Assembly (NCBI GenBank): GCA_003210775.1
Contig: QCUI01000001.1
Location: 104,813-168,812, forward strand
Length of the DNA stretch: 64,000 nucleotides
Source: Synechococcus sp. AG-679-A04
GTDB taxonomy: Bacteria > Cyanobacteriota > Cyanobacteriia > PCC-6307 > Cyanobiaceae
Direction: 5' to 3'
Part shown: positions 50,253 to 59,967 of the stretch, in pieces
How positions within the stretch are numbered: the first letter of the stretch is position 1
How the letters are laid out: every line of letters starts with the position of its first letter
The notes under the pieces: generated by a model
What the model was told of the DNA's origin: nothing
Seen by the model: only the letters and a program-made list of their open reading frames with translations
The model's database searches: none
Program-made: the position numbers and the translations under genes

Positions 50253-51593
50253 ATGAACAGTAAAAATATAATTTACAAAGTGGTCGCCATTAGCGTCATT
50301 ACAGCCTTGTCTCTTGTTATAGCTAAAAACGTCTGGGAGATATTATGTTTATCAATTTCTCAGTGGAATGAGCCAATACTATATGGAGATAGTTGGACTT
50401 TCACCGGAACAAAAACAACAGAAGGAGCAACAATACAGAGCCTCCTCTCTCAGCACAACGAGCACAGAATTGTTTTCAGCAAAGCTGCGGCACTCTTCGA
50501 GACGAATGTTTTAAATATCGCACCCGCGCAAACGGCTCTGCTTCAAACATTGATACTTTTACTTTTATCCTTCGGCCTTTGGGCATGTTTATCAGGCAAA
50601 ATCCTCAAATCAAAGACAATGTGGCTCATCACTTCATTAGCAGGCAGTGCGTTAATCTCAAATCCCTGGCAATACGAAAATCTTGGGTGGGAATTCCAGA
50701 CTCCGTGGATATTCATCAACACTTTGACCTTGTTCTCAGCAGTAGTCATAACTTTCGAAAAAAAAGCCATGAGTCCTGTTACCAGCGCTCTACAAGACAT
50801 TCTGGTTGCGGCAACACCTTGGATTGCAATATTCAGCACAGGGCAAGGCATTGCATTAGGGCTGGCTTTATGCATATGCTCTTGGACCAATAGTAGAAGG
50901 CTTGGATTGATATCTACAGCTTCCTTCACTTCCGCATTGCTTAGCACTTATTATTTACTCGATTACCAAAAACCCGCTTACCATCCAGATTATCAATTCA
51001 ATCCATATTACTTTTTGAAAATATTAACTGGAGGATCTTGGCAGGGATTGGCATTTTTAATCGTTGTTAGTGCTGTAGTCCTGGCAATCAATTACAAGGC
51101 CATAAAAATTCCTTTGAGAATAGCTGGAGCAGTTTTAATGCCATTTCTTTTCAGCATCATTTTTGCTGGAATGACTACTCTCTCGCGATCAGGATTTGGA
51201 ATCGGTCAAGCTAATTCTCCTCGATATGTGAGTCACAGTTTAATGGCTGGACTTTCTTGTATTCTGATAGTTGCCCTATGTTCTCAGAAAAGAAGTAGCC
51301 AGGTTAAGCTATTAAGCTTAGGCCCTGGTGTGTTGACATTGCTAGCATTTTCTTCCTTTAATTTTAGCAGCGTTGTTCAAGACTTCAGAGACCAATGGGA
51401 AAACGCTAAAACTTTTCAAGAAACAAGCAGATCTAATTTTAAATGCCTTGCCCAAAAAGCATCTCTCATAAAAAAAGGAATTGAGCATACCTGCCCTGAT
51501 GGTCCTCATCACAAAGACATCGCCCTTGAATATTTCAAAGGCAATACAGCAATCAAACCGCAAGGCTGGCACAAAAAATTAATTGATAAGTGA
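50253..51593 (+). CDS. AT-rich polytopic membrane protein, candidate GT-C pentofuranosyltransferase
   Basis: TM1, then a loop with YGDSW and QHNEHR, about 11 TMs and a late SPRY motif; sits directly ahead of the lipid-linked pentose genes. Function is inference. Confidence 0.6.
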   Translation: MNSKNIIYKVVAISVITALSLVIAKNVWEILCLSISQWNEPILYGDSWTFTGTKTTEGATIQSLLSQHNEHRIVFSKAAALFETNVLNIAPAQTALLQTLILLLLSFGLWACLSGKILKSKTMWLITSLAGSALISNPWQYENLGWEFQTPWIFINTLTLFSAVVITFEKKAMSPVTSALQDILVAATPWIAIFSTGQGIALGLALCICSWTNSRRLGLISTASFTSALLSTYYLLDYQKPAYHPDYQFNPYYFLKILTGGSWQGLAFLIVVSAVVLAINYKAIKIPLRIAGAVLMPFLFSIIFAGMTTLSRSGFGIGQANSPRYVSHSLMAGLSCILIVALCSQKRSSQVKLLSLGPGVLTLLAFSSFNFSSVVQDFRDQWENAKTFQETSRSNFKCLAQKASLIKKGIEHTCPDGPHHKDIALEYFKGNTAIKPQGWHKKLIDK

Positions 51594-51715
51594 AAATGTT
51601 TTACTCAATCACTTTGTTTCATGTCAAACATGGCTTCATTCCAATCCGCTACTATTAATTTTCAAGAAACAGAATTTATCTAAACCCTTGCTTTGCAGGT
51701 TTACTCTCAATCTCC

Positions 51716-52639
51716 ATGACTTCCATCGCAGTCTTAACATCAGCCAGTCGAGTAAGGCAATGGAGTAAAAATCTTCTCGTTTTCGCGGCGGCTATTTTTA
51801 GTCGTGAGCAATCATTCGATATTTGGTGGTCATGCGGACTTGCCTGCCTAAGTTTCTGCTTTATATCAAGTTCAATTTATCTCCTTAACGATATCCTCGA
51901 TCTGGATGCCGACCGCAATCATCCAATCAAACGCTTCCGTCCCATTGCATCAGGGAAACTTTCAATCAAGACTGCTGTCATTCTGTCAATGGGCTGGTGC
52001 GTCGCCAGCCTGCTGCTTGCATGGTCAGTCAATTGGGGCGTGGTTGGCAGCATCGTTCTCTATGGCTTCGTTCAACTCGGTTACTGCTTTGGCCTTAAAC
52101 GCCAACCACTCATTGATCTGTTCTGCATCGCATCGGGCTTCCTTCTGCGTGCAATTGCAGGTGTTGCCGCAGCCTCTGGCACCTGGTCTCCGTGGTTTTT
52201 GCTCACCGTTGGATTGTTGGCATTATTTTTGGCGGTTGAGAAACGGAAAGCTGAACTTCGCACAGCTCTCGATCGCGGTGTGATCACACGCAAGGTACTT
52301 CTACGCTATTCATTGCCATTACTGCAGAGGCTCGAATCAATCGTCGCCAGCAGCAGCTTCATGGCCTACGCACTATGGAGCGCAGGCCCCGCCCTCAACG
52401 GCGCCGAAACCAGTTGGATGCTCCTGAGCATTCCATTTGTTCTTGCAGGAATTTTTCGCTATCAATTGCTCAGCGACCCAGAAGAGTCTGAGAGACGCTT
52501 TCAAGATTCACCTGACAAGACAACTGAAAAGCCTGAAGAGATATTACTCAACGACAGGGGAATACAATTAACCCTAATAGGTTGGCTAATTACCACTACA
52601 AGTGTTAACTTACTAGACAGATTCGGGATGCTGCCATGA
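51716..52639 (+). CDS. Polyprenyl-phosphate 5-phosphoribosyltransferase (UbiA family, mycobacterial DPPR-synthase-like)
   Basis: RVRQWSKNLLVF, YLLNDILDLDADRNHPIKRFRPIASG, GFLLRA, KRKAE. Confidence 0.9.
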   Translation: MTSIAVLTSASRVRQWSKNLLVFAAAIFSREQSFDIWWSCGLACLSFCFISSSIYLLNDILDLDADRNHPIKRFRPIASGKLSIKTAVILSMGWCVASLLLAWSVNWGVVGSIVLYGFVQLGYCFGLKRQPLIDLFCIASGFLLRAIAGVAAASGTWSPWFLLTVGLLALFLAVEKRKAELRTALDRGVITRKVLLRYSLPLLQRLESIVASSSFMAYALWSAGPALNGAETSWMLLSIPFVLAGIFRYQLLSDPEESERRFQDSPDKTTEKPEEILLNDRGIQLTLIGWLITTTSVNLLDRFGMLP

Positions 52640-58964: not shown

Positions 58965-59019
58965 AAACCATCCGACAGGCCAGGCCTGATACCTTCAGCT
59001 CACCTGCACCTGGCTTCCC

Positions 59020-59967
59020 TTGTCCAGCACTCGCAATCTGATCACAGGCGGCGCCGGATTCCTCGGCTCCCACTTGACTGATCGCTTGATGCAAGCTGGC
59101 GAAGAAGTGATTTGCCTGGACAATTACTTCACAGGCAGAAAAGAAAATATTAGAAACTGGATTGGACATCCCAATTTTGAACTCATTCGCCACGATGTCA
59201 CAGAGCCAATCAAATTAGAAGTCGATCGAATCTGGCATCTGGCATGCCCCGCCTCTCCGATTCACTATCAGTTCAACCCAATCAAAACAGCCAAGACAAG
59301 TTTTTTGGGCACTTACAACATGCTGGGCCTTGCAAGGCGCGTTGGAGCGCGCTTCTTACTTGCCAGCACTAGCGAAGTTTACGGGGATCCAGAGATTCAT
59401 CCTCAACCGGAAAGTTACCGAGGCTGTGTCAATACAATCGGAATTCGCAGCTGTTATGACGAAGGAAAACGCATTGCCGAAACCCTTTGTTTCGACTATC
59501 AGCGCATGCATGGCACGGAAATCAGGGTGATGCGCATCTTCAACACCTATGGGCCTCGCATGCTTCCAGACGATGGACGGGTGGTCAGCAACTTCATCGT
59601 TCAAGCTCTCCAAGGAAAAGCACTAACGCTGTATGGAGATGGCAGTCAAACCAGATCTTTCTGCTACGTAGATGACCTGATCGAAGGCATGATCCGACTA
59701 ATGAATAGCGACAAAACCGGCCCCATCAACATTGGTAACCCCAATGAATTCACTATTCGTCAGTTAGCCGAACTCGTGCGCGATCGCATCAATCCCAACC
59801 TGGAACTGATCAACAAGCCCCTACCCCAGGATGATCCACTCCAACGTCAACCAATCATTGACCTTGCCAGGCAGGGGCTTAGCTGGGAACCCAAGATTTC
59901 TCTTGAAGAAGGTCTTCAACCCACGATTGACTGGTTCCGAGAGGCACTCGAACGGAAAGCCGAATAA
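59020..59967 (+). CDS. UDP-glucuronate decarboxylase (UDP-xylose synthase)
   Basis: [60 protein letters not shown] start. Confidence 0.93.

Follow-up and report, generated by a model that had tools for sequence, protein, structure and literature searches.

Which sugar is made by the genes that lie between tkt and thiC in Synechococcus sp. AG-679-A04, and by which steps? The question is raised by a stretch of 64,000 nucleotides (contig QCUI01000001.1 of assembly GCA_003210775.1, positions 104,813 to 168,812 of the forward strand), called the window below, where eight co-oriented genes, g1 to g8, are predicted to build a lipid-linked pentose from phosphoribosyl pyrophosphate (PRPP). The core of this pathway is already known: the interest lies in a conserved add-on, the gene pair g5/g6. 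The pair may represent a widespread, undescribed extension, in which a flavin mutase acting on a polyprenyl-phosphate sugar and a C4 epimerase would produce L-xylopyranose (L-Xylp) from PRPP and feed the beta-L-xylose side chains of O-antigens, picocyanobacteria, Prochlorococcus included, varying their surface by means of a swappable GT-C glycosyltransferase; this proposal is tentative, doubt somewhat outweighing belief. Genomes and loci used for comparison are indicated by G and L numbers; papers marked by PMC numbers were accessible in part, and statements drawn from them apply to those parts.

Nine plus-strand open reading frames (ORFs) between tkt and thiC, with four overlapping junctions, had been reported by a first-pass annotation, and were confirmed. 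The family labels given there also held in the Pfam scan (UbiA, SDR, FAD_binding_4, Epimerase, Amino_oxidase, GtrA, HAD with LPG_synthase_TM), the GT-C label of g1 being supported by a structure model. The cassette unit consists of the first eight genes, uxs, the ninth, being excluded:

50253..51593, + strand: g1, membrane glycosyltransferase with a GT-C fold, 446 aa, GC 0.40; the slot is exchangeable
51716..52639, + strand: g2, UbiA family, predicted polyprenyl-phosphate phosphoribosyltransferase (PPPRS/DPPRS)
52636..53358, + strand: g3, DprE2-like reductase of the short-chain dehydrogenase/reductase (SDR) type
53377..54744, + strand: g4, DprE1, FAD oxidase, C2 of lipid-linked ribofuranose
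54760..55698, + strand: g5, extended NAD-binding SDR, predicted stand-alone epimerase (of C4, in the reading proposed here)
55698..57002, + strand: g6, PRK07233 flavoprotein, predicted furanose-to-pyranose mutase
56999..57433, + strand: g7, GtrA-family flippase, 4 transmembrane segments
57408..58964, + strand: g8, fusion of a HAD phosphatase, predicted to act on 5-phosphoribose, with a flippase-like LPG_synthase_TM domain

In the window ORFs, overlaps are found at g2/g3 (4 nt), g5/g6 (1 nt), g6/g7 (4 nt) and g7/g8 (26 nt), and gaps 3' of g1 (122 nt), on either side of g4 (18 and 15 nt) and 5' of uxs (55 nt). Each cassette gene is single-copy in the source assembly, which is 74% complete.

The identity of the core is carried by g2 and g4. 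g2 scores 232.8 bits against NCBIfam NF008978 (cut-off 207) and matches PDB 8j8j at E 8e-41, DPPRS being the only family matched in PDB; its residues N58, D59, D62, D66, R177 and E180 have the same spacing as N247, D248, D251, D255, R366 and E369 of ORF15, the PPPRS of Citrobacter youngae (PMC11127046). That g2 could be a quinone or pigment prenyltransferase, in a cluster unrelated to glycosylation, is highly improbable: weak matches to other UbiA families exist, all far below cut-off, while g2 passes the DPPRS cut-off, has its catalytic residues in register and is linked to DprE1, GtrA and GT-C. g4 scores 539 bits against NF053785 (cut-off 500) and matches PDB 4aut over its full length (E 1e-109); in its GWNxCxD stretch an alanine replaces the cysteine of mycobacterial DprE1, the target of benzothiazinones. 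For g3, the best NCBIfam scores, to PRK07102 (151 bits, cut-off 267) and DprE2 (99.9 bits, cut-off 250), are both below cut-off. The protein has the YxxxK motif, and in most loci a DprE2-like gene adjoins DprE1; by this context, g3 is taken as DprE2-like.

Export and transfer are represented by g7, g8 and g1. g7 matches PF04138 (E 1.7e-13) and has four hydrophobic segments. g8 joins a HAD domain (PF12710, residues 6-189, E 3.6e-23, DxD at 9-11) to a PF03706 domain (E 4e-28), a fusion also found in the cyanobacterial locus L011; in the Pfam scan, its HAD domain is the only phosphatase domain among the nine proteins, and no phosphatase of the Rv3807c (non-HAD) type is present. g1 has no Pfam or NCBIfam match, and a Pfam scan of 82 homologs returned no informative family. 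A model built from the same 82 homologs (pLDDT 94) finds ArnT, PglB, oligosaccharyltransferase (OST), AftA and EmbA as top Foldseek matches (E about 1e-3 to 2e-2, TM 0.39-0.53): the top 15 rows are all GT-C enzymes, none reaching E 0.001. Residues D46 (after helix 1), H71, R312 and Y325 are invariant in the homologs. Assignment of g1 to GT136 was also considered and found no clear support: against one E. coli O99 ortholog of ORF12, BLAST gives E 0.38, and hhalign, in which no more than an RY motif is aligned, gives P 3.5%.

The cut-offs passed by g2 and g4, the PDB matches and the g1 fold support the proposal, made by the first-pass annotation, of a PRPP-derived pentose donor linked to polyprenyl phosphate, with flippase and GT-C enzyme. 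With high confidence, this is a real accessory cassette of the known three-component lipid-linked pentose type.

The pair g5/g6 is tightly associated with this core. In 50 of the 55 metagenome loci with enough flanking sequence, g6 comes directly after g5, and, among 61 long genome loci with g5 at their centre, 59 each contain g6, GtrA, PPPRS, DprE1 and DprE2. Among 161 genomes of the picocyanobacterial family, DprE1 is found in 15 (about 9%), an occurrence that extends the basic, known pathway to abundant phototrophs; g5 is found in 10 and g6 in 11. Close g6 orthologs occupy the same 10 genomes as g5, all DprE1-positive, the eleventh g6 (G198) being a distant paralog beside a glycosyltransferase-like gene. 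Among 51 genomes of Paraburkholderia, the genus of G071, 26 have DprE1, and g5 and g6 share the same 10, again all DprE1-positive. For the two groups combined (212 genomes), DprE1 accompanies the pair in 20 cases out of 20 and lacks it in 21 out of 41, counts which, coming from related genomes and linked genes that are not independent, describe a pattern rather than a statistical test. Because of this nesting, the pair is likely to be an add-on that acts downstream of arabinofuranose (Araf).

In 60 homologs of g5, residues D33, S116, S118, Y128 and K132 are invariant: the second strand is followed by an acidic residue of the NAD type, and the triad S-Y-K is present. Its best PDB profile matches are membrane-associated SDRs resembling NDUFA9. 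Compared with the ORF13-like epimerase of E. coli O99, g5 gives 22% identity in BLAST (E 0.11) and an hhalign P of 96.8 over 234 columns; at the level of sequence, it is a distant, full-length relative sharing the same architecture. Since the identity of the sugar in C. youngae depends on ORF13 alone (PMC11127046), g5 would need no oxidase partner, and is best read as a self-sufficient NAD epimerase, which would leave g6 free of an oxidase role.

g6 scores 459 bits against NF005560 (PRK07233; cut-off 252). A g6 profile scores PRK07208 proteins at 40-84 bits over their full length (38 for the next family tested), and PRK07208 aligns to UDP-galactopyranose mutase (UGM) at P 97.7: by these comparisons, g6 looks like a distant relative of the pyranose-furanose mutases. 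K160, the invariant R176, E312 and the YYxxD motif are kept in alignment with UGM. In structure comparison, phytoene desaturase (PDS) reaches Z 33.6 and protoporphyrinogen oxidase (PPO) 33.1, followed, at rank 6, by UGM 4dsg (Z 30.2, rmsd 3.3, 400 aligned residues); UGM 3hdq reaches Z 27.5. The UGM-like fold is shared with PDS, PPO and monoamine oxidase (MAO), and is therefore not specific. PRK07208 proteins themselves are found in 20 of 61 cyanobacterial genomes (L147-L158), with UGM-like motifs along their length, and are probably unannotated sugar mutases.

These properties also bear on other roles for the pair. It is unlikely, to begin with, that oxidase g6 and reductase g5 form a second couple of the DprE1/E2 kind, inverting C3 of lipid-linked Araf to yield D-lyxofuranose (Lyxf). 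Such a role would suit the near-obligate pairing of the two genes, their dependence on DprE1, the top fold matches of g6, which are oxidases and desaturases of membrane-bound substrates, and the distant relationship of g5 to a C3 epimerase-like protein; inversion of both C2 and C3 was in fact postulated for Lyxf by Kelly et al. (PMC11127046). ORF13, on the other hand, inverts C3 without an oxidase (PMC11127046), and some loci contain g6 without g5. Moreover, in the accessible part of their paper, Kelly et al. knew of no polysaccharide containing Lyxf (PMC11127046), though the cassette occurs in genera with solved O-chains: for so common a cassette, this argues against a double furanose epimerization.

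The resemblance of g6 to isoprenoid desaturases (PDS, Z 33.6) would also fit a plain delivery of Araf, as in mycobacteria, with g5 and g6 acting elsewhere, in recycling of the lipid carrier, in a change of the acceptor or in another pentose redox reaction, for instance at C5. DprE1-only cassettes, found in 5 of the 15 and 16 of the 26 DprE1 genomes, are compatible with this explanation, which is nevertheless quite improbable: in most loci, across phyla, g5 and g6 lie between DprE2/E1 and the flippase, and g5 keeps the catalytic triad of a sugar epimerase.

The route preferred here leads from D-ribofuranose to L-xylopyranose. L-xylose is D-ribose inverted at C2 and C4, and oxidation at C4 is impossible while O4 is the furanose ring oxygen; inversion of C2, ring expansion and inversion of C4 are the minimal steps. 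The C4 epimer of beta-D-arabinopyranose (beta-D-Arap) is alpha-L-Xylp, from which an inverting GT-C enzyme gives beta-L-Xylp, so that the beta anomer is predicted. g2 would move ribose-5-phosphate from PRPP onto polyprenyl phosphate (step 1, by strong homology), and the HAD domain of g8 would take off the 5-phosphate (step 2). g4 and g3 would then invert C2, giving beta-D-Araf-P-lipid (step 3; the homology is strong for g4, while g3 is placed by context). As a flavin mutase, g6 would convert this into beta-D-Arap-P-lipid (step 4), and g5 would invert C4, giving alpha-L-Xylp-P-lipid (step 5). The donor would be flipped by g7, perhaps with the membrane domain of g8 (step 6), and g1, as an inverting GT-C enzyme, would add beta-L-Xylp side chains, most likely to the O-chain of lipopolysaccharide (LPS) (step 7). 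Steps 1-3, 6 and 7 alone, by which a lipid-linked pentose is made, flipped and transferred, are very probable; for the full g1-g8 route to L-xylopyranose, confidence falls just short of balance. The first-pass annotation had given a pentofuranose as end product, with g5 and g6 listed and left unexplained: this is not supported, as a pyranose may result from the action of the pair.

The O-chains of Xanthomonas, Stenotrophomonas and Burkholderia commonly contain L-xylose and its 3-O-methyl ether. A contig from Ralstonia syzygii (L107) holds the six-gene core. The R. solanacearum O-chain carries non-stoichiometric terminal beta-L-Xylp (PMC10450222). The O-antigen of X. translucens contains xylose, and xylosylated rhamnans occur in Xanthomonas (PMC8042644; also as a reference title within PMC5786101), a genus whose LPS loci contain a block resembling the cassette by annotation (PMC2238763). 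In 7 of 80 loci (L052:8177-8974, for example), the cassette contains or adjoins a class I methyltransferase, which may O-methylate the pentose; if the proposed route is true, the cassette, with this occasional methyltransferase, would also be a source of O-methyl-L-xylose side chains. Locus L201 (738-8284), with PPPRS, DprE1, DprE2, a flippase-like gene, a membrane protein and g6, and without g5, would make D-arabinopyranose according to the same scheme.

Several observations weigh against the L-xylose route. g6 has no match to the UGM families GLF and TIGR00031 at E 0.01 (Pfam, NCBIfam); a UGM-family match above cut-off is likewise absent from G000. When compared directly with bacterial UGM, the g6 profile covers only the first 85-94 residues (P 26-35). 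Two arginines bind the substrate in UGM: the first is kept in g6 (R176), the second is a glycine (G309). PDS and protoporphyrinogen oxidases outrank UGM by about 3 Z units, and no UGM appears among the 39 Foldseek rows of g6 seen from ranks 1-50. The mutase reading of g6 thus rests on pathway logic more than on homology. As for gene content, judged from locus DNA only, g5-g6 occurs without DprE1/E2 at L238 (over 15 kb), L089, L123 and L087, g6 without g5 at L201 and L195, and g5 without g6 at L081 and L075; the nesting of the pair within DprE1 genomes derives from related or linked genomes and genes. The native uxs is an alternative cytoplasmic source of (D-)xylose, and about 60 kb separate the cassette from a large island for sugar biosynthesis on contig C1. 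The structure in PMC10450222 comes from a strain other than L107, and no strain-level match of cassette and structure was found. One X. citri strain is reported to have a plain rhamnose polymer (PMC8042644), and the side chains of Xylella are reported to be beta-D-Xylp (PMC5786101).

The beta-D-Xylp reported for Xylella (PMC5786101) and the loci L238 and L087, which have PPPRS, g5 and g6 with no DprE1/E2 nearby, would also fit parallel branches from lipid-linked ribofuranose: DprE1/E2 would lead to Araf and g5 to D-xylofuranose, with g6 modifying the latter further, for example to D-Xylp, for a glycan with two pentoses. The homology of g5 to the ORF13-like protein and the many loci with two or more GT-C-like genes point the same way. 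Yet identity to the ORF13-like protein is only 22%, none of the 20 genomes with g5/g6 lacks DprE1, and the window has a single GT-C gene, so that such branching is distinctly unlikely.

In the searched full-text literature, where subscription journals are largely missing, neither a route for L-xylose biosynthesis in LPS nor a function for the g5/g6 pair was found, judging by titles and abstracts. The accessible part of a survey of monosaccharide pathways mentions only UDP-xylose and L-arabinose (PMC7725333); pentoses are generally present in cyanobacterial extracellular polysaccharides (PMC4878081, PMC12942842, PMC4390846). The first-pass annotation knew of no characterised cyanobacterial example, and the same searches agree: nothing linking DprE1, cyanobacteria and arabinofuranose was found.

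The limits of the cassette are defined by its flanks:

48121-50130, + strand: tkt, Pfam transketolase; left flank of the insertion site
59020..59967, + strand: uxs (g9), UDP-xylose synthase; native flanking gene
60042-61442, - strand: thiC, right flank

The uxs product matches human UDP-glucuronate decarboxylase (PDB 4gll, E 2e-130). The gene had been counted as a member of the operon, which is not borne out: 38 of 46 genomes of the genus have uxs, and in 16 of 30 fetched uxs loci tkt lies within 1.5 kb and no cassette gene is present. Of these 30 loci, 9 show the order tkt-uxs-thiC and another 7 have tkt in the vicinity; in 7 the neighbour is manC, 4 go with the cassette, and 3 adjoin none of the queried genes. 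In the sister genomes G003 and G004, uxs is found directly 3' of tkt. It was rejected as a cassette gene, being native beside tkt/thiC in relatives, with the cassette inserted before it. A functional meaning of the position next to tkt, also suggested at first, fared no better: in G008 the cassette lies elsewhere, in the company of rml genes and of genes for glycosyltransferases and a Wzy_C protein, and the tkt-uxs-thiC order is intact, so that a metabolic link to tkt was rejected as unnecessary.

g1-g8 is an accessory cassette inserted between tkt and uxs. Its marker, the PPPRS gene, is present in 6 of the 46 genus genomes (5 of the 33 good ones). G014, G023 and G067 share the tkt/uxs insertion site, while in G068 the cassette is elsewhere; the tkt-thiC site recurs as an insertion point in other picocyanobacteria (L184-L186, L195). 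At one of these sites (L195:4635-8329), PPPRS, DprE1 and g6 are found with neither SDR, a decayed or reduced variant. GC content is 0.56-0.59 in the core genes on either side of the cassette, 0.51-0.57 in g4-g8, about 0.50 in g2-g3 and 0.40 in g1. An unrelated membrane protein of 557 aa fills the GT-C slot in G023 and G067. Nucleotide identity to G067 is 84-90% over tkt, the 3' half of g3, g4-g6, g8 and uxs, but drops to 63-73% in g2 and in the 5' half of g3. Because of the replaced slot and this drop, the 5' end of the cassette has likely been exchanged by recombination, as would be expected for an acceptor-specific transferase.

The best 80 of at least 575 g5 relatives were considered; among the matches listed, they span picocyanobacteria, Prochlorococcus, Burkholderiales, Chlorobi, Desulfosarcina and Acidithiobacillus, the closest named one being a Synechococcus metagenome-assembled genome (MAG), at 92%. 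Annotated plasmids from Burkholderia, from Rhizobium and from a strain of Rhodobacteraceae (3 of 8 matches examined) carry these six genes in a row, and the six-gene core is also present in Chlorobium and others. The system is widespread in Proteobacteria and Chlorobi, and specific neither to mycobacteria nor to cyanobacteria. The surprise expressed at a "mycobacterial type" of operon was overstated, given this distribution of the core in Burkholderia, Chlorobium, Rhizobium and others, and the characterization of the type in 2024 (PMC11127046).

In a quick tree of 62 g6 sequences and 3 outgroups, the picocyanobacterial ones form one clade (23 rows, support 100), which includes one MAG labelled Bordetella; this clustering suggests that the cassette has long been resident in the picocyanobacterial family. 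The MAG (L064), labelled Bordetella parapertussis, has a cassette nesting among picocyanobacterial sequences, and is likely mislabelled or misbinned. A g6 relative was found neither among 50,697 phage records nor in viral contigs, where not one of 38 pattern matches could be confirmed.

A marine metatranscriptome contig corresponds to window positions 50058-50728 with one difference. As for expression, 13 RNA runs contain part of the stretch. One of them, X1, yields a 7.85-kb contig of a relative, which has a depth of 19 and runs from the end of g3 to g8, with part of g2 also covered; since all 30 control bins are covered in X1 (lowest 3-8), DNA carry-over is possible. Scans for promoters and terminators gave results at or below chance (2 versus 7.1 and 10 versus 9.9). 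Other window features are an RNase P RNA (37198-37584), a tRNA (37102-37175) and a TPP riboswitch upstream of thiC (61488-61596).

A glycan cluster at window positions 1586-18367 contains a Wzy_C/O-antigen ligase protein, several GT4 genes, a gene of the DAHP-synthase family (KdsA-like), a HAD phosphatase and an ABC transporter, and is a candidate for the source of the acceptor. In another cyanobacterium (L012:8002-13997), PPPRS-DprE1-DprE2 adjoin an exosortase gene, which hints at a protein as the glycosylated acceptor there. At window positions 19657-21878, a GtrA-YdjC fusion (19657-20952, + strand) and a convergent GT2 glycosyltransferase (20940-21878, - strand) form a second module for a lipid-linked sugar; an unannotated protein at 23665-24714 may be its transferase. 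Outside the window, at G000:C1:41600-97600, co-oriented ORFs resembling sugar-biosynthesis genes make up a large island; judged by N-termini, genes for nonulosonic acid appear to be among them.

Surface glycans of picocyanobacteria bear on phage and grazer contact, and g5/g6 is a candidate origin of L-xylose. If the proposed route is true, the flavin mutase, with a lipid-linked sugar as its substrate, would represent a new enzyme activity and could serve glycoengineering as a tool. For the "more elaborate" systems, whose products Kelly et al. left open (PMC11127046), the pair also offers a concrete, testable answer.

The closest characterized system is that of C. youngae O1/O2, with ORF15 (PPPRS-PRP), ORF14 (flippase), ORF12 (GT136) and ORF13 (epimerase) (Kelly et al. 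2024, PMC11127046). Common to both are a PPPRS, identical in its catalytic residues, a phosphatase of the HAD family, a small flippase in the membrane, a GT-C enzyme and optional epimerases. They differ in that HAD is fused here to a flippase-like domain (g8) and there to PPPRS, the flippase is here GtrA, the GT-C enzyme is not detectably GT136, and four modifying enzymes are present instead of none or one. In the same paper, labels of Fig. S12 indicate, for "more elaborate" loci of a function left open in the accessible part, SDRs and NAD(P)-dependent epimerases as well as oxidoreductases of the FAD and NAD(P)/FAD kinds, and the legend of Fig. S11 names a glycan with nosturonic acid (PMC11127046); a commentary likewise leaves loci with multiple epimerases and oxidoreductases open (PMC11194591).

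With the mycobacterial decaprenyl-phospho-arabinofuranose pathway (Rv3806c, Rv3807c, DprE1, DprE2, Rv3789, Emb/Aft), the cassette shares a stand-alone DPPRS ortholog, a DprE1 above cut-off, a DprE2-like SDR, a GtrA-type flippase and the GT-C fold. Here, however, a HAD phosphatase takes the place of Rv3807c, which is unrelated to HADs (PMC11127046); there is one GT-C enzyme and no polymerase of Emb size, the genes are accessory instead of core, and g5/g6 are added.

The etfA-side block of the Xanthomonas LPS locus (region XAC3588-3595 of Xac 306, ORF8-17 of Xoo BXO8, Xoc BLS256; Patil et al. 2007, PMC2238763) matches in sizes, labels and order, by annotation rather than alignment: a prenyltransferase, an oxidoreductase, an SDR, a 312-aa epimerase, a 430-aa "protoporphyrinogen oxidase/phytoene desaturase", GtrA and membrane proteins. 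A methyltransferase is present in one strain, as in 7 of the 80 cassette loci, and the PPPRS there, of 481 aa, has the size of a HAD fusion; in the accessible part, the block is given no biochemical function (PMC2238763). With UGM (Glf) and PRK07208, finally, g6 shares the fold and, in alignment, the K..W/Y...R, E and YYxxD motifs; it differs by the absence of a family match, by the glycine in place of the second arginine, and by its predicted substrate, a lipid monophosphate rather than a UDP-sugar.

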